NCBI GenBank assembly: GCA_965218435.1
Contig: CBDCKW010000009.1
Location: 2,624,001-2,688,000 of the forward strand
Direction of reading: 5' to 3'
Length of the DNA stretch: 64,000 nt
Source of the DNA: Truepera sp.
GTDB lineage: Bacteria > Deinococcota > Deinococci > Deinococcales > Trueperaceae
In this document: positions 2,789 to 11,369 of the stretch, piece by piece
How the letters are laid out: each line of letters begins with the position of its first letter
Position numbering within the stretch: position 1 is the first letter of the stretch
Made by a program: the position numbers and the translations under genes
The notes under the pieces: generated by a model
Databases searched by the model: none
What the model saw: only the letters and a program-made list of their open reading frames with translations
What the model was told of the DNA's origin: nothing

Positions 2789-3844
2789 GGCTTTGTTGCA
2801 TAAATGCCCCAACCGAGCTAGCTGCGCTTATCGTCGTCGGTACAGCTCAGGTTACGAGGTAACTTTGCGGCTTAGCCAGCTGAATCATCTTATTAAGAGC
2901 TTTGCACTTGAGCTTGAGTTCAACGACTTGGTTTTTGAAGCAGCGGGAAGAGGCTTGAGCGGTAAAGGTTGTTTTGAAGCGAAACATGGTGGTTTCAGCT
3001 AAGGAGCGGCGGTGATAGTGGCATAAACGTTTCCACTTTTTACGTCCGTGCTTTCTGATCGCACGCAGGTTTTCGTCTCTAGGATGAGGTGCTTGCTTGC
3101 AGTTGCCGTGTTGCCAAATCTTGGCGTCCTTACGTGGTGCAATGGCGGCTTTGACATTACGCTCACTAAGTAGGTCATAGCAGCTTCTCTGATCGTAGGC
3201 ACCATCAGCACCAACTTGTTCGATGTTCGCTTCAACTAGCTCAAGCAGCGGCTCCAAAAGCTGACCATCCTTCTTGTCATTGCGCGTCACCTCGGCTGCT
3301 AGGATTTCACCACTGGTTTCATCTACCGCTAGATGCAATTTGCGCCAAGTGCGACGCTTGCTCGCCCCATGTTGTCTAGTCTTCCATTCCCCTTCACCGT
3401 AAATCTTGATGCCAGTCGCGTCGATGACGACGTATCTAGCACCCTCTCTAGGCAGAACAGGCAGTTTGACCTCCAAGCTGGCTAGGCGTCTTGACACCGT
3501 GCTATGTTCCGGTACCCGTAAGTCAACCTCATCAGATCAAAGATGGCTGTGACCATGCCCGTTGCTTGACGTCCTGCTAAGCCGTAAACGCTTTTGATGA
3601 CGGTGACAGTCTCAACCGCTACGTCACTGTACTTGCGGCTCGCGCCACGTCGCCCCGTCTTTTTGGTATTGAACCACTGCGCTATGACCGCCTCATCCAG
3701 CCAAAAGGTAAGACTACCTCGCTGTTTTAAGCCTGCGTTATACTCGCTCCAGTTGCGGATTTTGTAGCTGTTTCGTTTTTTGCTTACACACCGAACTTAA
3801 TATCTGCTATCCGCAACCTTTTTGGCTATTTGTGCAACAACACC
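2789..3844 (-). mobile_element. IS5 family (IS903 group) insertion sequence, 1056 bp, inactivated
   Basis: 17-bp imperfect terminal inverted repeats GGCTTTGTTGCATAAAT (2789-2805) and ATTTGTGCAACAACACC (3828-3844); DDE transposase inside; flanking 9-mers differ, so no target duplication. Confidence 0.9.
2847..3787 (-). pseudogene. IS903-type transposase, frameshifted near 3530
   Basis: N-terminal frame YKIRNWSEYNAGLKQRGSLTFW shifts by one base into the frame DLRVPEHSTVSRR...IDATG...WRKLHLAVD...ADGAYD...YHRRSLAET; likely start codon reads GTA. Confidence 0.85.
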
Positions 3845-4024
3845 ACGCCGCATCCGAAGTTCTGCGCGTTACGAAAACTCGAGACTAGCCTCAGCTTGCT
3901 CGAGCTGAGGGCGAACTTTACCTGACTTGAACGAGTTTCGCTTCGTCGCAGAACCGCTCCCGGTCAAGCTACCGACAGCCAAGCCAAAGCTCTCGATTCA
4001 ACCTGTGCTTTTTGAGGCGACGAA

Positions 4025-5017
4025 ATGACCGCTGACATCCAAGCCCTCAAAAATGCCGTTCCATTCCCGGAACTCGTCAGCGAAACACACATTATCGGAC
4101 GTGACGGTAAGGTGCTGTGCCCCGCTTATAGCGACACGCGGCCCTCATGCCATGTTTACCCTGACGGCTGGAAATGCTTCAGCTGCGGTGCTCACGGTGA
4201 CGTGCTCGACTGGCTCGAGCTAGTCCATAATTTGAGCTTTACTGAAGCGACTGAAGCACTACAGAGACGCGCCGGGATGTACCCCCCGGTTAGCGAGCGC
4301 CCGGTTAAGGTTAAGAAACCGGCCCCAACATTCAAGGTTGTTGACGAAAACATACTCGAGGCTCACCGCCGCCGCGCCGCTCAGCTTGACCGCGTGCCCC
4401 TTGCGCTGAAGGAGCGCGGGTTCAATCTGAACGATTTGAAACGCTTAGGAATTGCAGCCTACGGCCCGGATGCCGTCCTACCTATCACCGGCCCGGATGG
4501 AACGACACTCGCACTCAAAAAACGCTTTGCCGAGCCCTACGAAGGGCAACGCTACCGCTACGTTGTACCGGGACACGGCACGCCCGCATGGTGCTCACCC
4601 GGATTTTTAGACCACGACCGGCTGTTCCTCTGTGAAGGCGAATTGAACGGAACGATTTGCTCTTTGGTCTGTCCTGAAATCGGAGTCATGGCAACTGCCG
4701 GGACATCCGGCGCTTTACATCTGGAAGCTCTACGGGGCCGCACCGTTTACGTCTACGCCGATGCCGACGCTACAGGTCAGGCCGCCCGTGATGAATGGGC
4801 ATCGTCGGCGCTTTCGGCGGGCGCTGCAAAGGTGTTTGTGCTCGAGGCTTGGTCTGCTGATGCCTGCGACTTTGCCGGACAGAGCGGACGTTCTGCACTT
4901 CGGGGGCTGCTCATCCGTAGCCTCGAGACTGCAAAAGCTTTTGACCCCACATTTACCGAACAGCCCCCATTTAACGAACACGGTAGTTCGTCAAATAAAA
5001 GCCCGTGGGGTTACTGA
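4025..5017 (+). CDS. DnaG-like primase (CHC2-type zinc finger plus TOPRIM)
   Basis: CPAY...WKCFSCGAHGD zinc finger (His ligand position is Tyr); TOPRIM LCEGELN and YADADATG. Confidence 0.8.
   Translation: MTADIQALKNAVPFPELVSETHIIGRDGKVLCPAYSDTRPSCHVYPDGWKCFSCGAHGDVLDWLELVHNLSFTEATEALQRRAGMYPPVSERPVKVKKPAPTFKVVDENILEAHRRRAAQLDRVPLALKERGFNLNDLKRLGIAAYGPDAVLPITGPDGTTLALKKRFAEPYEGQRYRYVVPGHGTPAWCSPGFLDHDRLFLCEGELNGTICSLVCPEIGVMATAGTSGALHLEALRGRTVYVYADADATGQAARDEWASSALSAGAAKVFVLEAWSADACDFAGQSGRSALRGLLIRSLETAKAFDPTFTEQPPFNEHGSSSNKSPWGY
4969..4996. repeat. Palindrome ATTTAACGAAC-N6-GTTCGTCAAAT (copy 1)
   Basis: 11-bp arms with one mismatch; related half-site at 4951-4961. Confidence 0.8.
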
Positions 5018-6252
5018 TGGCAGTCAACAAGTTGGAACTCCCAATCGTGCCGCCTAAAGCGTCGTGGGCCGTGACCAACATCTTTCCGGTAGGCCACACA
5101 TCTATGCTTTACGCTCCTGCTGGAGTCGGCAAAACCCGCATCGTGTCTTACCTGGCAGCGCAGATGACAAGACCATATCCGAACGGGCTTTTTCTAGGGC
5201 ACGAGGTACGCGGGGGCCGTGTCGTCATCTTAGATGCAGACGACCCGACTGGCTACGGCTATGCAGTCTGGCTTAACCGCTTTCTAGCAGCTCATGCTGA
5301 CACACGCCGCGAGCTGATAGACCTCCGTTCTATCACCGGAGGGCTCACCCCTGAAGATGTCGCCAAACTTCAGGATGAACTGAAGGGCAAACCGCCGCGC
5401 CTTATCGTCATAGACACCTTCGCATCTGCCTTTGTCGGGCTCGACATCCTAAGAGCGCACCACGTACAGCTTGCGCTTGTGGGGCTGGCACAGCTAGCCA
5501 AAGATTTGAACTGTGCCGTGCTCATCCTTGACCACGTATGCAAGTTGCAACCCGGTCAAACGGTAGCGAGTAAAGGCCCTTACGGTGCGGCTAAGACCTT
5601 CAGCCCCCGCGCTGTGTTTGCACTTTCCAGAGTGCCACCTAAAGAAGTAGAGGGCCGGGACATCCTGAAACTGGAATGTACCAAGATGAGCTACGCCCCA
5701 GAACCGCCGCCCAAAGGGGTAGAAATCACCCTCGAGCAAAACGACACCGTAGCCCGTGCCAAGCTTGCCGACCTACCCGGCAAGACAATGTTAGAGGATG
5801 CGGTCAAGGCGATAGAGGACAAACTCAAGTCAGCACAAGGCGAGCATGTACCTCGGAAACTACTGCTTAACGCTGCTGTTGAGAAGGTGAACATCACCCA
5901 GCGGTATGCAGAGAAAGCACTCGACAAGCTTATAGATGAATTGGGCAACCGGCTCGAGGTCATCACCTTACCGGCTAAAGGGAGCCCCAAGGCTTATAGG
6001 TATGTGTTGAGTTCGTCAAATGACAAGATTAGCGTCCCTGACGGTGAATCATTTGACGAACAGCTTAGTTCGTCAAATGAACCTTATGACCGTTTGCGTT
6101 CCAGACTTGAGCGGGGAGATTGGGCGGTTCCGAGTGCTGAGAGGCTACTCGACTACTACCGCCGCGCCGATGATGGCAACAGCTCAGCACAGACCGCGAT
6201 AGACGATTACCTAAAGAACCCTCAAGTCGTTCAGGCTCCCGAGGTCAACTGA
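5005..6252 (+). CDS. AAA_25/RepA-type (RecA-fold) replicative helicase; probable start ATG 5017
   Basis: Walker A APAGVGKT, Walker B LIVIDT, VLILDH motif; overlaps primase stop (TGATG). Confidence 0.8.
   Translation: MGLLMAVNKLELPIVPPKASWAVTNIFPVGHTSMLYAPAGVGKTRIVSYLAAQMTRPYPNGLFLGHEVRGGRVVILDADDPTGYGYAVWLNRFLAAHADTRRELIDLRSITGGLTPEDVAKLQDELKGKPPRLIVIDTFASAFVGLDILRAHHVQLALVGLAQLAKDLNCAVLILDHVCKLQPGQTVASKGPYGAAKTFSPRAVFALSRVPPKEVEGRDILKLECTKMSYAPEPPPKGVEITLEQNDTVARAKLADLPGKTMLEDAVKAIEDKLKSAQGEHVPRKLLLNAAVEKVNITQRYAEKALDKLIDELGNRLEVITLPAKGSPKAYRYVLSSSNDKISVPDGESFDEQLSSSNEPYDRLRSRLERGDWAVPSAERLLDYYRRADDGNSSAQTAIDDYLKNPQVVQAPEVN
6051..6078. repeat. Palindrome ATTTGACGAAC-N6-GTTCGTCAAAT (copy 2)
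   Basis: Perfect 11-bp inverted repeat; extra half-site at 6011-6021. Confidence 0.85.
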
Positions 6253-6461
6253 GATGCCTCATCCGATTGATACCTACCTTGACGCGCAGCTCAGGACGCT
6301 CGAGCATCTTTATGCCCAGCACTGTCCTACCTGAAACTCAACACGCCCGTCGCCTCGTTCGCCACGTTCACTTTCACAAACAGCGAGGACTAACACCTCT
6401 TAAGCGCCGTTACCTGCTTGCCGACATCCGGGCTATGACCCACATCTTGAAAGGGAAAATC

Positions 6462-6900
6462 ATGAACCACAACCTTGACGAAATCCACACCGCACTTGAT
6501 TCCGCTACTGCCGACCTTGCTTTGAAACCGCCGCATCACCCTCGAGGCTGAACTTAGTGGCCTCGCAACTCAGGAAGCCGGTGTACTGAAGCAACTCGCG
6601 CCCCTTCAGGCCGAACTTCAGCGCCTTGAGCCACCCGCACCCGCCCCACGCCCCCAAGATGTTGAGCGTCTTGGGCAACTCACGGCAATCCTGCACTCGA
6701 AACTCGCAAAGACCCCGCGAAACTCACCCACCGCTGCACGGGTCAGGGAGCAGCTCCCTCGTCTTAACGACGAAACCGTTTCCGTTCACGACCGCCTGGG
6801 TATCGCCAAAGGCTTGATGTCTGAACTCAGCGACTGGTATCAGCGTGACCGTCAGGTTTGGGACCTTGCTGAAGGTCGTGCTGCCCAAAGGCTCCGCTAA
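6462..6900 (+). pseudogene. Frameshifted coiled-coil protein of the element
   Basis: MNHNLDEIHTALDSATADLALK shifts near 6527 into a long open frame RRITLEAELSGLATQE...AAQRLR, ending TAA 2 bp before the next start. Confidence 0.55.
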
Positions 6901-6902
6901 CC

Positions 6903-7379
6903 GTGCCCCGTGTTTGCACCGTTTGTAACCATAGCCAACGGGCAGAAATTGAGCAGCTGCTACTTGAAAACGAACCTTTGCGGGACGTAGCGGGACGCTA
7001 CCGGGTTTCTAAATCGGCTCTGGAGAGGCACAAAAAGGCGCACATCCCTTTAGCCTTAGTGAAAGCTCAGAACGCTGCTGAAGCTGCCCAAGCCGACACG
7101 CTACTCGAGCAGGTGCAACACCTTAAGGCTCGAGCCTTAACCATCCTCGACAAAGCTGAAGGGGCAGGCGACTTAAAGACTGCTCTCTCAGCAATTCGGG
7201 AAGCCCGGAACACGCTAGAGCTGCTGGCTAAACTCATGGGTGAGCTTGACGAAAGCCCGACCATCAATCTTGTGAGCGTCCCGGAATGGCTCAACTTACG
7301 CGCCGTCGTCATTCAAGCGTTGCTACCCTTTCCGGCAGCTGCGAAAGCTGTAGTAGAAGCCCTTCATGAATCTCCGTAG
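6903..7379 (+). CDS. Putative terminase small subunit (CxxCxH plus HTH, helical C-terminus)
   Basis: CTVCNH, HTH-like LRDVAGRYRVSKSALERH; sits directly upstream of and overlaps the terminase ATPase. Confidence 0.55.
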   Translation: MPRVCTVCNHSQRAEIEQLLLENEPLRDVAGRYRVSKSALERHKKAHIPLALVKAQNAAEAAQADTLLEQVQHLKARALTILDKAEGAGDLKTALSAIREARNTLELLAKLMGELDESPTINLVSVPEWLNLRAVVIQALLPFPAAAKAVVEALHESP

Positions 7380-8124
7380 CGATTTAAGATTTGCCCTGTC
7401 ACCGGCTGACTTTGCCTCTGAGCTGCTAGGACTCGAGCTTGACCCCTGGCAACGCGGTGTTTTGGAAAGCATCGGCAAAAGAGACATCTTGAACATCACG
7501 CGGCAGGGGGGCAAAAGCACTGTGTCGGCTGTTCTGGCTTTACACCAAGCCCTGTACCGACCCGGCTCACTCTCTATTTTGGTCAGCCCGTCACAACGTC
7601 AGAGCGGCGAACTTTTCCGTAAGTGTCTCGAGTTCAAAGCACGCTTACCTCGTCAGCCCGACCTGGTAGAAGATTCCAAGACTTCACTCAACCTCGTCTC
7701 CGGGGGCCGAATCGTGAGCCTACCCGGTAGTGAGGCCACGGTCAGAGGTTTTAGTGCAGCAAACCTGATTATCGCGGATGAGGCGGCACGAATTGACGAC
7801 AGCCTTTATCTGGCGATTCGTCCGATGTTGGCAACCTCAAACGGCAGGCTGATACTGATGTCAACACCGTTTGGCCGTCGTGGTTTCTTTTGGCGTGAAT
7901 GGGACACAGGCGTGAACTGGAACCGGGTTGAGGTTCCTGCTACGTCTATACCCCGCATCTCGGCAGCGTTCCTAGCAGAGGAACGTGCATCTATGCCTGC
8001 ACTTTGGTACTCACAAGAATACTGCTGCGTCTTCGGAGAAAATACCGACAGCGTTTTTGCCTATGCCGACGTACAAAACGCCTTATCAGATGACATACAA
8101 CCGCTCTTTGGAGGTAGCTTATGA
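7366..8124 (+). CDS. Terminase large subunit, ATPase domain only
   Basis: LDPWQ adenine motif, Walker A TRQGGKS, VRG, Walker B IIADEAA, coupling motif LMSTPFG, QEYCCVF. Confidence 0.85.
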   Translation: MNLRSDLRFALSPADFASELLGLELDPWQRGVLESIGKRDILNITRQGGKSTVSAVLALHQALYRPGSLSILVSPSQRQSGELFRKCLEFKARLPRQPDLVEDSKTSLNLVSGGRIVSLPGSEATVRGFSAANLIIADEAARIDDSLYLAIRPMLATSNGRLILMSTPFGRRGFFWREWDTGVNWNRVEVPATSIPRISAAFLAEERASMPALWYSQEYCCVFGENTDSVFAYADVQNALSDDIQPLFGGSL

Positions 8125-8840
8125 CTCAGCAAACGAAGCAACCCGCCGCTGTAGCGCCGGTACTACCGCCGCCTGTTTATCTCTTAGGCGTTGACCTGGC
8201 ACAATCCGCTGATTTCACCGCGCTAGTCGTGCTTGAGTGCTCGTTCGTTGATACCGGCAAAGTTGAGAACGGCCTGCCCAGCATGACCGTCAGACTGCCG
8301 AGCGGACGCTCTTACGGGGGTGAGTCTCGCACCCGTCCGGTCTATGAACACCACTACGCTTGCCGTCACCTCGAGCGATTACCACGGGGTACGCCCTACC
8401 CGGCTCAGGTTGCAAGGATTAAGCAGCTATCGGATGAACTCACCAAGACCACTGGAACGACGCCGCGCCTGGTAGCTGACGCGACCGGCGTTGGTAGGCC
8501 GGTTTTGGACATGCTGCGCTCTGCTGGACTCTCACCAGCTGCAATTACGATTACCGGCGGCGATAACGTTTCACAAGATGGGCTCGACTACCGCGTTCCT
8601 AAAAGAGATTTGGTCTCCGTGATACAGGTGCTTTTGCAAAGTCAACGGCTGAAGATTGCCCGCGCCTTACCCGAAGCCGATACCCTCACCGCTGAACTCT
8701 TATCGTTCAAAGTGTCTATCAGACTGAAGGGTCATGATAGTTACGGAAACGATAAGGGCGAATGGCGCGAGAACCCGCATGATGATTTGGTTTTGGCGTG
8801 TTCACTCGCTGCTTGGTTTGGGGAGACGCAGCGGCGTTGA
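8121..8840 (+). CDS. Terminase large subunit, RNase H-like nuclease domain only
   Basis: LGVDLAQSADFTA, ADATGVGRPV, HDDLVLA; own SD (GGAGG) and ATGA overlap with the ATPase gene. Confidence 0.8.
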   Translation: MTQQTKQPAAVAPVLPPPVYLLGVDLAQSADFTALVVLECSFVDTGKVENGLPSMTVRLPSGRSYGGESRTRPVYEHHYACRHLERLPRGTPYPAQVARIKQLSDELTKTTGTTPRLVADATGVGRPVLDMLRSAGLSPAAITITGGDNVSQDGLDYRVPKRDLVSVIQVLLQSQRLKIARALPEADTLTAELLSFKVSIRLKGHDSYGNDKGEWRENPHDDLVLACSLAAWFGETQRR

Positions 8841-8864
8841 CGCTCATGTCAGTACGCATAAAAG

Positions 8865-8892
8865 AGCCCCGGCGCGTTGACCGGGGCTTCTC
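8865..8892. terminator. Terminator-like hairpin closing the terminase operon
   Basis: AGCCCCGG-N8-CCGGGGCT between convergent genes. Confidence 0.65.
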
Positions 8893-8906
8893 TGGTGTTG
8901 GGGAAC

Positions 8907-9245
8907 CTACGCCGCTTCTCGGTAGCTCTCTACCTCTAACATCCGCACCTGATACCAGCATAAATCCCACTCGAGCCGTGCCGGTTCAAAAGCACACCGG
9001 GCTTCTGTCAGCGCGTCCTCTGCCTCAGCTAAGGCGGTGTAGTCGGATGAAAGCTCGAGCCTAAGCTTAGTGGCCCGCTCCCGTTTGTTCCTGCCGTCAA
9101 CGCTTTCACACAGTTTTAGGGCTTCAGTGTGCTCGAGCGTCCGCTTAGCTTCAGCGTGGGCTGTGACCGCACCGCATAAGGTGATCTGGGCATCCTCTAG
9201 TCCGTTCTTAGCGGTTGTCAGTTGGGAGAGAAGAGGGGGCATCAT
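8907..9245 (-). CDS. Hypothetical helical protein of the element
   Basis: 112-aa ORF with SD; follows degraded small ORFs at about 9242-9608. Confidence 0.5.
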   Translation of the reverse strand: MMPPLLSQLTTAKNGLEDAQITLCGAVTAHAEAKRTLEHTEALKLCESVDGRNKRERATKLRLELSSDYTALAEAEDALTEARCAFEPARLEWDLCWYQVRMLEVESYREAA

Positions 9246-9772
9246 GCTGCCTCTCCCCAGAAGTCATAGTCAGGTACTTCGTCTTGGATGATTGGGGGCA
9301 GTTCATCGTCTGCCCCGTCGTCCTCTGCCGCTAGCTCACAGAGCTTGCAAGTCCTCTTCACGGTCGCTGTACATCTCAATATCTGCGAAGGTAAAGGGGC
9401 TCATTACAGAGCCCGCCTTGCGACACGTACCGCTTGATGGTGTACTTTACTTAGACACGAGGTTAAAGGCAGTGTCTAAAACCTCCCAGACGGTGCCCCA
9501 AGTCTGTAAGGAACCGACGATGTCGGAACCGCGTACTAAATCATACGCCTTGATAGGGGTGCGGTAGCTTGCGCCGTCTTGCTTGTGAAGGGTGATGGTA
9601 TTCTGCATTTTAATCTCCTACTTACGGGATTCTAAGGGGCTTGCTTTTGCGGGCTCTGCCCCTTAGTGACTTAATGGTACCATGAGCTTTGGTATATATC
9701 AAGTACCTTGTAATCCCTTTTACTTTGTAGTAGTATAGACACATGGTAATACAAAGCCCTAATATATAGGAC

Positions 9773-10024
9773 GTGAAAGACAAAGCCATTTGGAAACTCC
9801 CAGAGCTATTAAAGCGTGAGGGCATTACGCCCTATCGGTTGCATAAAGACATAGAAGCAAGTGAGGGCGGCAAAGCCTCACGCAACACGATTTATAGATG
9901 GTCTAACGAACTGCCAGACACGTTAGATGTAGCGCTACTTATGAGTGTGCTCTACGCGGTGCGTGCCCGAACGGGTAAGGCTTTAAGTGTGTGCGACTTG
10001 CTCGAGTATAGAGAAGAGGCTTAA
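9773..10024 (+). CDS. XRE/Cro-like HTH regulator
   Basis: LPELLKREGITPYRL...ASRNTIYRW...VCDLLEY; upstream of integrase, after an AT-rich divergent region. Confidence 0.75.
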   Translation: MKDKAIWKLPELLKREGITPYRLHKDIEASEGGKASRNTIYRWSNELPDTLDVALLMSVLYAVRARTGKALSVCDLLEYREEA

Positions 10025-10026
10025 AG

Positions 10027-11202
10027 GTGGCAGGGTCAAGAGGACAGATACTCGAGCGTAACTACGGCTTTCTCGTGCGGGTATTCGTCGGCAGAGACGC
10101 CACCGGCACCCGCATCTATCACAACCAAAAGGTAACGGGCACTAAGAAAGATGCCCAAAAGATACTGACGGCTGTTTTACGCAAGCTCGATATGGGCGAA
10201 CTCTTACTCGAGCCCTCAACCCAAACGGTAGAAGCGTACTGTGAGGACTGGCTTACGACGATTGCCCAGGGGCGTTTAGCTAAGAGCACCTTTAAGAATT
10301 ACTGCCACTACCTACGCAAACAGGTCTATCCGGCTGTGGGTAAGCAGAAGCTTGTGAGACTTGCCTCGAGAGACGTACAGAAGCTTTACGGCGATCTCTC
10401 AGCACGGGGTCTGTCCGGGCGCACCGTCCGCTACACGCACACCGTCCTCAACTCGGCACTAGAACACGCGGTAGCGCAGCGGCTTATACCCAGTAACCCT
10501 TGCAGGTACACCCAACTCCCCCGGCTCGACACGAAAGAGATGAACGCGATGAATGAGGCAGAGCGGGCCGCGTTTATAGAGGCTGCCACCCATAACCGGA
10601 TGCACGTCTACTTTGCGCTACTGCTAGCCACAGGCTTACGACCGGCTGAAGGGTTAGCCCTCAAGTGGGGAGACTTCGACCCGGTAAGCAAGACGCTACG
10701 CATCACCCGGACGCTCGAGTATGTTTCAGGTAAGGCGTATTTTAAGGAACCTAAGACGAAACGCTCACGGCGCACCATCAACTTGCATGACGGCACCGTG
10801 GCGCTGCTGTTAGAGCACAGACAAACGGGACTCATGCCGGGTGAACTGATTTTCAGCACGCTCACAGGTGAACCCTTTTACACAAATAACGTACTCAACC
10901 GCTACTTTAAGCCGTGCCTGGTAGCGGCAGGGCTGGCGACGGTTGAGGCGACCGCTAAGGGAACCGAGCGCATCGTGTCGAAGTTTCGGATGTACGACCT
11001 ACGCCATACCCACGCGACGATGTTGCTCGAGGCAAACGTCAACCCTAAAATTGTCAGCGAACGCTTGGGCCACGCTTCAGTCTCGCTTACCTTAGACACC
11101 TACAGCCACATTTTACCGACAATTCAAGATGCCGCAGTAGAGGCGCTAGGTTCAGCTCTTTATAGCGGGTCAAAAGTAGCTTTAGACCTACCCCTAAATT
11201 AG
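10027..11202 (+). CDS. Tyrosine recombinase / phage-type integrase
   Basis: TGLRPAE, PKT, YDLRHTHAT, SERLGHAS, DTYSH; N-terminal arm-binding and SAM-like segments. Confidence 0.95.
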   Translation: MAGSRGQILERNYGFLVRVFVGRDATGTRIYHNQKVTGTKKDAQKILTAVLRKLDMGELLLEPSTQTVEAYCEDWLTTIAQGRLAKSTFKNYCHYLRKQVYPAVGKQKLVRLASRDVQKLYGDLSARGLSGRTVRYTHTVLNSALEHAVAQRLIPSNPCRYTQLPRLDTKEMNAMNEAERAAFIEAATHNRMHVYFALLLATGLRPAEGLALKWGDFDPVSKTLRITRTLEYVSGKAYFKEPKTKRSRRTINLHDGTVALLLEHRQTGLMPGELIFSTLTGEPFYTNNVLNRYFKPCLVAAGLATVEATAKGTERIVSKFRMYDLRHTHATMLLEANVNPKIVSERLGHASVSLTLDTYSHILPTIQDAAVEALGSALYSGSKVALDLPLN

Positions 11203-11235
11203 TTTGGCACACGTCCGGCACATGAAATAGAAAAC

Positions 11236-11272
11236 GGTGAGGCTCTTAAGTGCGAGCCTCACCTTAGTTTTA
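11236..11272. terminator. Hairpin between integrase and tRNA-Thr
   Basis: GGTGAGGCTC-N8-GAGCCTCACC with A-rich and T-rich flanks. Confidence 0.7.
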
Positions 11273-11294
11273 TCGTCCCTGACGGTGTTTTTAC

Positions 11295-11369
11295 TGGAGC
11301 CGATGGTCGGAGTTGAACCGACGACCTATCGATTACGAATCGATTGCTCTACCTCTGAGCTACATCGGC
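11295..11369 (-). tRNA. tRNA-Thr(CGT)
   Basis: Cloverleaf GCCGATG...ATCGA-TTCGTAA-TCGAT...GGTTCAACTCC...CCA. Confidence 0.95.

Follow-up and report, generated by a model that had tools for sequence, protein, structure and literature searches.

A native two-gene large terminase in a truncated, headless satellite-like element of Truepera

Known phage satellites either use the large terminase of a helper phage, as do the phage-inducible chromosomal islands (PICIs), or bring a whole head, as do their capsid-forming relatives (cf-PICIs), for which terL is listed as a specific component (PMC10085698, de Sousa et al. 2023; articles with PMC numbers are cited throughout for their accessible parts). 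Another element, NitKor-E1, was described as a single probable relic and its function called enigmatic (PMC6563490; Krupovic et al. 2019). Here we describe an element in a 64,000-nucleotide stretch of Truepera sp. DNA (contig CBDCKW010000009.1, positions 2,624,001 to 2,688,000; hereafter the window) that lies between these forms. Next to a tRNA-Thr gene it carries replication and integrase genes together with a terS-like gene and a TerL divided over two genes, one for the ATPase and one for the nuclease; Pfam and PHROG scans and local queries found no capsid, portal or connector gene in it, in its sister element of the same genome (L029) or in the rest of the genome. We conclude that the split terminase is a real native feature, and that the element is probably a truncated example of a new satellite variant with an unusual two-chain motor. 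The features that carry this argument are the following (aa, amino acids; HTH, helix-turn-helix):

6903..7379, plus strand: TerS-like protein, 158 aa (HTH matches; position and architecture)
7366..8124, plus strand: stand-alone TerL ATPase of the T4 gp17/P74-26 type, 252 aa
8110..8115, plus strand: Shine-Dalgarno sequence GGAGGT of the nuclease gene, within the 3' end of the ATPase gene (from the sequence)
8121..8840, plus strand: stand-alone TerL nuclease with RNase H fold, 239 aa (profile and fold matches)

The nuclease gene begins inside the ATPase gene: its ATG shares the ATGA at 8121-8124 with the ATPase stop codon, and GGAGGT sits 5 nt 5' of that ATG, an arrangement already described in a first-pass annotation of this DNA made from its letters. 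An assembly frameshift at 8121 is excluded. Logan contigs of two sequencing runs (X1, depth 55; X2, depth 403), which stem from one sample that is possibly the window's own source, cover 8036-9158 with zero mismatches and zero gaps, and these read-derived contigs cross the junction unchanged and confirm the stop at 8122-8124. The ATPase matches phrog_7579, 'terminase large subunit', over residues 22-248 (profile positions 2-238 of 239; E 3e-56), and this family of 239 columns is itself ATPase-only. The nuclease matches phrog_27743 (233 columns, function unknown; E 2e-35) and, below the cut-off, Terminase_6C (E 7e-4). A search for ATPase relatives limited to proteins of 138-441 aa gave 7,331 matches among 8,000 scored, the best 119 of which (self excluded) are all stand-alone, 232-284 aa long and 61-76% identical. 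Among proteins longer than 441 aa there were 214 matches at E <= 1e-40; the top-ranked fused forms reached 55% identity, and this family's nuclease was present in 5 of the 120 long matches listed. A threshold of E <= 1e-30 gave 4,259 clusters (50% identity) with the nuclease profile, and each of the top 150 is stand-alone, with a length of 194-296 aa.

The same picture was obtained from ATPase rows collected from genomes, viral contigs and metagenomes, where 160 of 187 are split and 27 fused (180 are distinct; 19 short duplicate loci, L001, which is on the contig of L224, and two truncated rows were left out). In 28 split loci checked, the position of the nuclease start relative to the ATPase stop ranges from -80 to +15 bases, and the distance is mostly no more than 15. 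Within the host phylum, 15 of 301 genomes, this one included, hold a match; in six other genomes of the host's family all eight matches are short open frames (270-311 aa); family f3, by contrast, has long ones (339-473 aa), located in prophages. Close split relatives have named hosts among the Acidobacteriota, Proteobacteria and Chloroflexota, to cite some. Because the contigs bridge the junction and the closest relatives are stand-alone proteins, we read the split as a family trait; it is native and conserved, as the first-pass annotation had supposed.

Loci with a split terminase occur both with and without head genes. Labelled by PHROG scans of cluster representatives and of large unlabelled neighbours, 41 of the 160 encode head genes (two of them merely a protease or a minor head gene), 54 do not, and 65 are too short to judge; since a headless call requires a downstream view of at least 3 kb, 95 split loci are resolved. 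Head genes are present in 39 of the 56 resolved loci that come from the viral collection; for cell genomes plus metagenomes the count is 2 of 39. The portals of the head-encoding loci belong to phrog_113, 64, 533, 2662/12, 156 and 146 and to two unassigned clusters. In a FastTree phylogeny, which gave long-branch warnings and does not establish the direction of transfer, fusion or fission, head-encoding and headless contexts interleave (20 changes) and fused forms branch from within split ones (8 changes). The clade to which the window's ATPase belongs (15 rows, SH-like 98) has eight members that can be judged, and every one is headless. None of the three outcomes that the first-pass annotation had listed as refuting was thus observed. 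From the tree pattern, phages and headless elements seem to have exchanged the terminase repeatedly. Judged from these gene contexts, the split is a working motor design in ordinary tailed phages and the missing head alone marks a satellite. That the design is at home in head-bearing phages argues for packaging over an altered function in the headless elements, and it weakens the earlier suggestion of a terminase reused for DNA processing or anti-phage activity. The proposal of a distinct capsid-less class made at the same time stands in so far as a large set of elements, att-bounded ones among them, combines terS-like, ATPase and nuclease genes with integrase and replication genes and without portal or capsid; the split, however, is not peculiar to them, with head genes in 41 of the 95 resolved loci, and while it is conserved among the homologue neighbourhoods, the absence of portal and capsid is not family-wide.

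Both halves of the terminase look active from their residues. The ATPase has a P-loop (RQGGKS), a Walker B motif (DE, 138-139) and a coupling motif (STP), and alignment makes R127 its putative arginine finger, a residue whose role in TerL ATPases has been described (PMC5389665); its profile matches the P74-26 ATPase (E 3.5e-20) and also T4 gp17. A single-sequence PDB search with the nuclease gave no match, but its profile matches the P74-26/G20c nuclease (5TGE, E 1.6e-18) and its model folds onto G20c 5M1F (E 4e-8). Residues D25, D31, D120, D221 and D222 align with D294, D300, D347, D428 and D429 of P74-26, which are metal ligands (PMC5389665), and D25/D120/D222 form the acidic triad. Among headless loci, P-loop, arginine-finger position, Walker B and coupling motif are kept in 53 of 54, and the Asp triad in the best nuclease copy of 48 of 49. 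Of 39 gene pairs 13 are saturated; the 26 for which dS is finite have dN/dS values of 0.045-0.30 (some pairs stem from contigs too short to class), from which both genes appear to be under purifying selection. The catalytic motifs that the first-pass annotation had seen in both halves are therefore intact and maintained.

A link between the two chains is to be expected, since the P74-26 nuclease, once separated from its ATPase, fails to cut DNA (PMC5389665), and by this analogy reassembly of the window's ATPase and nuclease is probably required for cutting. The modelled complex of the two proteins reached a score of 0.80 and the best of three controls one of 0.00, with at least 69% of contacts in common between runs and a partner pLDDT of at least 75; the mark was attained by 116 of 157 solved pairs and by 2 of 215 mismatched ones. 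The high score may reflect likeness to the solved TerL, the two proteins being halves of a split gene. In the predicted interface, residues 229-248, the conserved C-terminal tail of the ATPase, lie on the nuclease surface around residues 172-183. A P-L-F-type motif was seen in this tail in 39 of 54 headless and in 15 of 41 head-encoding split loci. We also observed two full nuclease-fold genes in five elements, in four of which (L040, L154, L181 and L148) the first catalytic Asp is missing from one copy; these pairs suggest, from sequence, exchangeable active and dead C-terminal subunits:

L040, 7094-8302: nuclease-fold pair
L154, 10749-12029: nuclease-fold pair
L181, 1062-1826 and 3027-3686: nuclease-fold pair
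L148, 292-1026 and 2273-2899: nuclease-fold pair
L147, 1344-2572: nuclease-fold pair

Headless elements of this family recur as whole units with a common layout of integrase, primase/helicase, terS-like gene, ATPase, nuclease and cargo. The sister L029, at tRNA-Met, is bounded by a 57-bp repeat whose copies lie 13.6 kb apart and encodes an HTH protein, primase-helicase, coiled-coil protein, TerS-like protein, ATPase, nuclease, SMODS and SLATT_4 proteins, ParE and integrase; it has no head gene, and no open reading frame (ORF) of its terminase operon is long enough for a portal or an HK97 capsid. Among 36 loci examined, seven elements of 9.6-17.3 kb are bounded by att repeats (57, 56, 44, 39, 27, 17 and 17 bp): besides L029 these are L220, L185, L137 and L004 and, with the weaker 17-bp repeats, L055 and L002. 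Eight further family contigs (L044, L048, L064, L071, L081, L083, L118 and L194) have terminal repeats and are thus circular. A Pfam scan of 143 proteins of at least 88 aa from 14 of these elements (the seven att-bounded ones and all circular ones except L071) found no portal or capsid, one prohead protease (L064) and one Mu_F protein (L081). In PLSDB seven records matched, and of the four opened three are split and headless, replicons of 11-16 kb from cultured bacteria (pSR11 and pSR14 of Salinibacter ruber and one of Streptomyces virginiae, NZ_CP108092), while the fourth, a Rhodococcus replicon, is fused; terminases on small S. ruber plasmids are mentioned, without further analysis in the accessible text, in PMC6060240. 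Members include integrase-free plasmids bearing ParA (pSR11, pSR14 and the circular L083 and L118), archaeal-type replication domains occur in L055 and L083, and HTH_17 regulators in L220 and L004. A comparison of 75 crudely cut spacers of three CRISPR arrays with the fetched loci gave no match.

A few side observations concern these elements. The SMODS nucleotidyltransferase and SLATT_4 genes at 12837-14301 of L029 form a CBASS-like defence cargo, and its ParE toxin gene stands with an XRE gene 5' of the integrase. In L071, L087 and L116 a portal gene lies upstream of the split terminase, with a capsid gene as well in L071 and L087; L071, a 9.9-kb circle with a primase, resembles a cf-PICI with a split TerL. 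Tape-measure-like genes are present in headless elements (L006, L040, L042/L168, L095, L150) and on the plasmids pSR11 (L238), pSR14 (L239) and pDJL3 (L240), the last with a tail assembly chaperone in addition and a fused TerL; such a label in L224 was removed from the count because the gene lies outside the element, on the other strand. Tape-measure-like genes in headless members make sense only with borrowed particles, and the gene content of the elements that bear them raises the possibility of satellites which, in addition, determine tail length or DNA delivery.

The 158-aa protein is modelled (pLDDT 92) with an N-terminal CxxC-H/HTH part, a long helical hairpin and short C-terminal helices, and an HTH followed by a helical hairpin is the usual layout of TerS. 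In Thermus phage Riverbug a homologue (E 7e-58) is encoded ahead of the fused TerL. Its VIA matches are generic helical hairpins (Z <= 8.4) and its viral fold matches weak, some of them named TerS and one, at 6e-4, uncharacterised; in many loci the terS position is taken by other small genes. By position and architecture it is a putative TerS. An 82-aa homologue of the small gene found in terS position in L221-L226 was seen in two TerL-less elements of this genome, L032 (5690-14455, contig C9, at tRNA-Ala) and L035 (contig C8), which by gene content are possible PICI-type satellites in the classical sense, with terS alone. The genome further holds a decayed third copy and a fragment. Contigs C6 and C8 are self-repeating with periods of 12,981 and 10,332 bp, small circular replicons assembled repeatedly; C6 carries a primase and helicase related to those of the window, and C8 the module with a 112-aa gene listed below.

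The remaining features of the window element and its borders are given here; together with the terminase genes they agree with the first-pass annotation in gene identities and coordinates (primase, helicase, terS-like gene, ATPase, nuclease, XRE regulator, integrase and tRNA-Thr):

2789..3844, minus strand: IS5-family insertion sequence (IS) with imperfect inverted ends (Pfam DDE_Tnp_1, E 2e-26)
4025..5017, plus strand: DnaG-type primase with CHC2 zinc finger and Toprim (domain and PHROG matches)
4968-4998, 6010-6023, 6049-6061 and 6067-6080: iteron-like 11-14-bp repeats, direct and inverted (three direct and one inverted exact copies in the window)
5017..6252, plus strand: AAA_25 (RecA/DnaB-like) replicative helicase (Pfam AAA_25, E 4e-25)
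6462..6900, plus strand: frameshifted coiled-coil gene, directly 5' of the terS-like gene (tblastn, 55% over 129 aa)
8865..8888: GC-rich hairpin between convergent genes (called as a terminator on the minus strand only; plus-strand T-tail weak)
8907..9608, minus strand: three-gene module convergent to the terminase genes (intact 112-aa helical gene at 8907-9245 and two prematurely stopped genes)
9773..10024, plus strand: XRE/Cro-type HTH regulator (HTH_26, E 0.005, below the cut-off)
10027..11202, plus strand: tyrosine integrase (phrog_1, E 2e-71)
11295..11369, minus strand: tRNA-Thr(cgt), integration target, attR side (ARAGORN)

The repeats within 4968..6080 are a candidate replication origin. 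The integrase gene ends 92 bp from the 3' end of tRNA-Thr. At the other side, at ~3844, the IS5-family element abuts the window element without a target-site duplication: the IS has replaced the left end, and attL and the excisionase region are lost. The 7.4 kb previously given for the element, right in its coordinates, is thus the size of an IS-truncated remnant. An attL copy of the tRNA-Thr 3' half was not found anywhere in the genome assembly, and a 14-18-bp match between 6029 and 11270 was dropped as an att site because it falls inside the helicase gene. No empty integration site could be fixed, as the DNA 3' of tRNA-Thr varies among the relatives compared; this flank differs in every relative examined (L231-L237), often holds IS or foreign genes, and is an insertion hotspot. 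That head genes were lost at the IS is unlikely, even if the size of the lost stretch is not measurable. Run X2 has one extra base, at full depth, at 3529 in the IS transposase gene, and the frameshift there may be an assembly error or a variant.

The first-pass annotation had missed that the copy is decaying. The coiled-coil gene is frameshifted, its bases confirmed by an X1 contig covering 5388-8065, and has an intact 145-aa counterpart in L029, and two small genes of the minus-strand module are cut short. This module (genes of 112, ~63 and ~68 aa) is common to five elements of the genome at 77-80% DNA identity; it occurs with or without a terminase, and its 112-aa and 68-aa genes have no PHROG family. 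The terminator reported directly after the nuclease gene corresponds to a real hairpin, but it is called on the minus strand only. With attL gone, the window copy is probably immobile and unable to excise, though activity in trans of its three terminase proteins is still conceivable.

The explanation we favour, and judge probable, is that the window element is a damaged copy of a PICI-like satellite family which uses its own terminase to load helper procapsids, the packaging step being what we infer. Its footing is in the observed gene content, native split, intact motifs, purifying selection and att-bounded and circular forms. Upon infection by a helper phage the integrase would excise the element and the primase/helicase would replicate it, while the TerS-like protein would pick out a packaging site on the element's own DNA. 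ATPase and nuclease would join non-covalently, the ATPase tail (229-248) on the nuclease replacing the covalent linker, and the assembled TerL would cut the concatemer and pump element DNA through the portal of a helper procapsid. Unlike the Staphylococcus aureus pathogenicity islands (SaPIs), such an element would have no need to match its helper's TerL. The same two-chain terminase serves ordinary tailed phages beside many portal types.

Several results weigh against this reading. A search of this genome for a helper prophage with 138 head, tail and TerL queries returned no head or tail gene, and the portal and capsid families PF04860, PF05065 and PF05133 matched nothing in it (PF06074 matched no control genome and is hence uninformative). 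In the window element no capsid-size-redirection gene was identified, read depth is not raised, which indicates no amplification, and the coiled-coil gene and two small genes are decayed relative to the sister element. The TerS-like protein has no Pfam or PHROG family match and no PDB Foldseek match at E <= 0.001, and the annotators of Riverbug name a different gene TerS. Contacts between TerL and portal are as a rule cognate, so that docking on a heterologous portal is hypothetical. Relatives hold unannotated ORFs of 250-425 aa, and divergent capsid genes could evade hidden Markov models.

The same genes might instead protect the host, with terminase subunits that poison or outcompete phage packaging, through portal occupation or concatemer cutting, and an element that is itself not packaged. 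The nuclease-fold paralogues without the first catalytic Asp, the defence-like cargo of members such as L029 (SMODS + SLATT_4, ParE) and the undetected helper fit this idea, which we nevertheless consider unlikely, since the elements retain a terS-like gene and replication genes along with all the motor motifs, a combination superfluous for interference alone, and since circular and plasmid forms and tape-measure-like genes indicate particle-borne spread. Less probable again is a role in DNA processing outside virions, such as concatemer resolution, linearisation or DNA movement by a non-phage route: the same split enzyme stands beside portal and capsid genes in loci that interleave in the tree with headless ones, and the arginine-finger position, trans-acting and required by ring motors, does not vary across the aligned ATPases, even if the integrase-free ParA plasmids (pSR11, pSR14, L083, L118) and the enigmatic status left to NitKor-E1 (PMC6563490) would suit it.

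Could these elements be decayed prophages that have lost the head and tail genes following the terminase? The window copy is indeed IS-truncated with three broken genes, close relatives include real phages, and NitKor-E1 was taken for a probable relic (PMC6563490). Yet seven att-bounded and several circular elements are headless with one layout across phyla, 37 of the 39 resolved split loci from cell genomes and metagenomes are headless, and both terminase genes are under apparent purifying selection. Moreover the portal of phage relatives is nearly always 3' of the nuclease, a side that in the window element is taken up by the hairpin, the convergent genes, the integrase and attR. This reading is already largely refuted and we give it little credence. 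It is very improbable, finally, that these are capsid-forming satellites with a capsid and portal diverged beyond recognition. The portal genes with split terminase in L071, L087 and L116 (with capsid in the first two), the prohead protease of L064 and the Mu_F protein of L081 speak for it, but the window element has no unassigned ORF longer than ~145 aa, and no ORF in the terminase operon of L029 is long enough for either gene.

Beyond the PICI-like reading of this one locus, we tentatively put forward a wider possibility, for which the odds are less favourable: satellites across bacteria and archaea may fill stolen empty procapsids by means of a modular two-chain terminase. The split would make its C-terminal subunit exchangeable (active or nuclease-dead, several elements encoding both) and allow one motor family to serve many portal types, and the satellites would form a reservoir for repeated re-acquisition of the terminase by phages, sometimes with re-fusion. 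A widespread motor-only form midway between PICI and cf-PICI would be a new point of hijacking, and orphan 'terminase' genes of small plasmids or islands, the enigmatic NitKor-E1 among them, would find an explanation in it. TerL is then an unsafe virus marker in metagenomes. A natural two-chain TerL, found with six portal families in real phages, offers a clean system for the handover between ATPase and nuclease and for portal contact, and whole members of the family live in cultured hosts (S. ruber M8 with pSR11). In the full-text literature searched, subscription journals and supplements being outside its scope, no two-gene ATPase/nuclease terminase family and no such satellite is described, and among the listed matches (20 of 1,032) none contains the phrase 'split terminase'.

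Compared with the solved one-chain TerL of P74-26/G20c and T4 gp17 (4ZNI, 5TGE, 5M1F), its closest structural relatives, the window terminase has a P-loop ATPase and an RNase H-fold nuclease with the same catalytic residues; it is no single chain but two translationally coupled genes, with a predicted tail tether in place of the covalent linker. The natural split lies near the 256/257 domain boundary of the isolated P74-26 domains (PMC5389665). Pfam and PHROG scans of the window element found no head and tail modules such as mark a Caudoviricetes prophage. NitKor-E1 of Ca. Nitrosopumilus koreensis AR1 is the nearest printed case, with a tyrosine integrase, TerS and TerL and, in the accessible text, no other tailed-virus gene (PMC6563490); the likeness is one of gene content. 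The EPIPs of Mycolicibacterium aichiense (PMC12822802, a preprint) are 11-kb satellites with a tape measure protein and so a precedent for the tape-measure-bearing members; the accessible text lists a small terminase and head-tail proteins and no large terminase, and the window element has no tape measure gene.

The island satellites remain the best comparison. PICIs and SaPIs (PMC10085698) are likewise ~10-15 kb and tRNA-integrated, with integrase, regulator, primase/replicase and a small terminase-like gene, accessory or defence cargo after the packaging genes, and no portal; the window element has its integrase beside tRNA-Thr, a primase-replicase module and candidates for the regulator (the XRE gene) and the small terminase (the TerS-like gene), and the sister L029 has att repeats. 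It differs in having its own TerL, as separate ATPase and nuclease proteins, where PICIs have terS only and use the helper's TerL (PMC10085698), and no capsid-morphogenesis gene was identified in it. With cf-PICIs (PMC10085698) it shares terL and, in the form of the terS-like gene, a candidate terS beside integrase and primase, but it has no capsid, portal or head-tail connector genes and its TerL is split. The window element thus stands outside the definition of a PICI by its own TerL and of a cf-PICI by its missing head, yet most likely works like a PICI.

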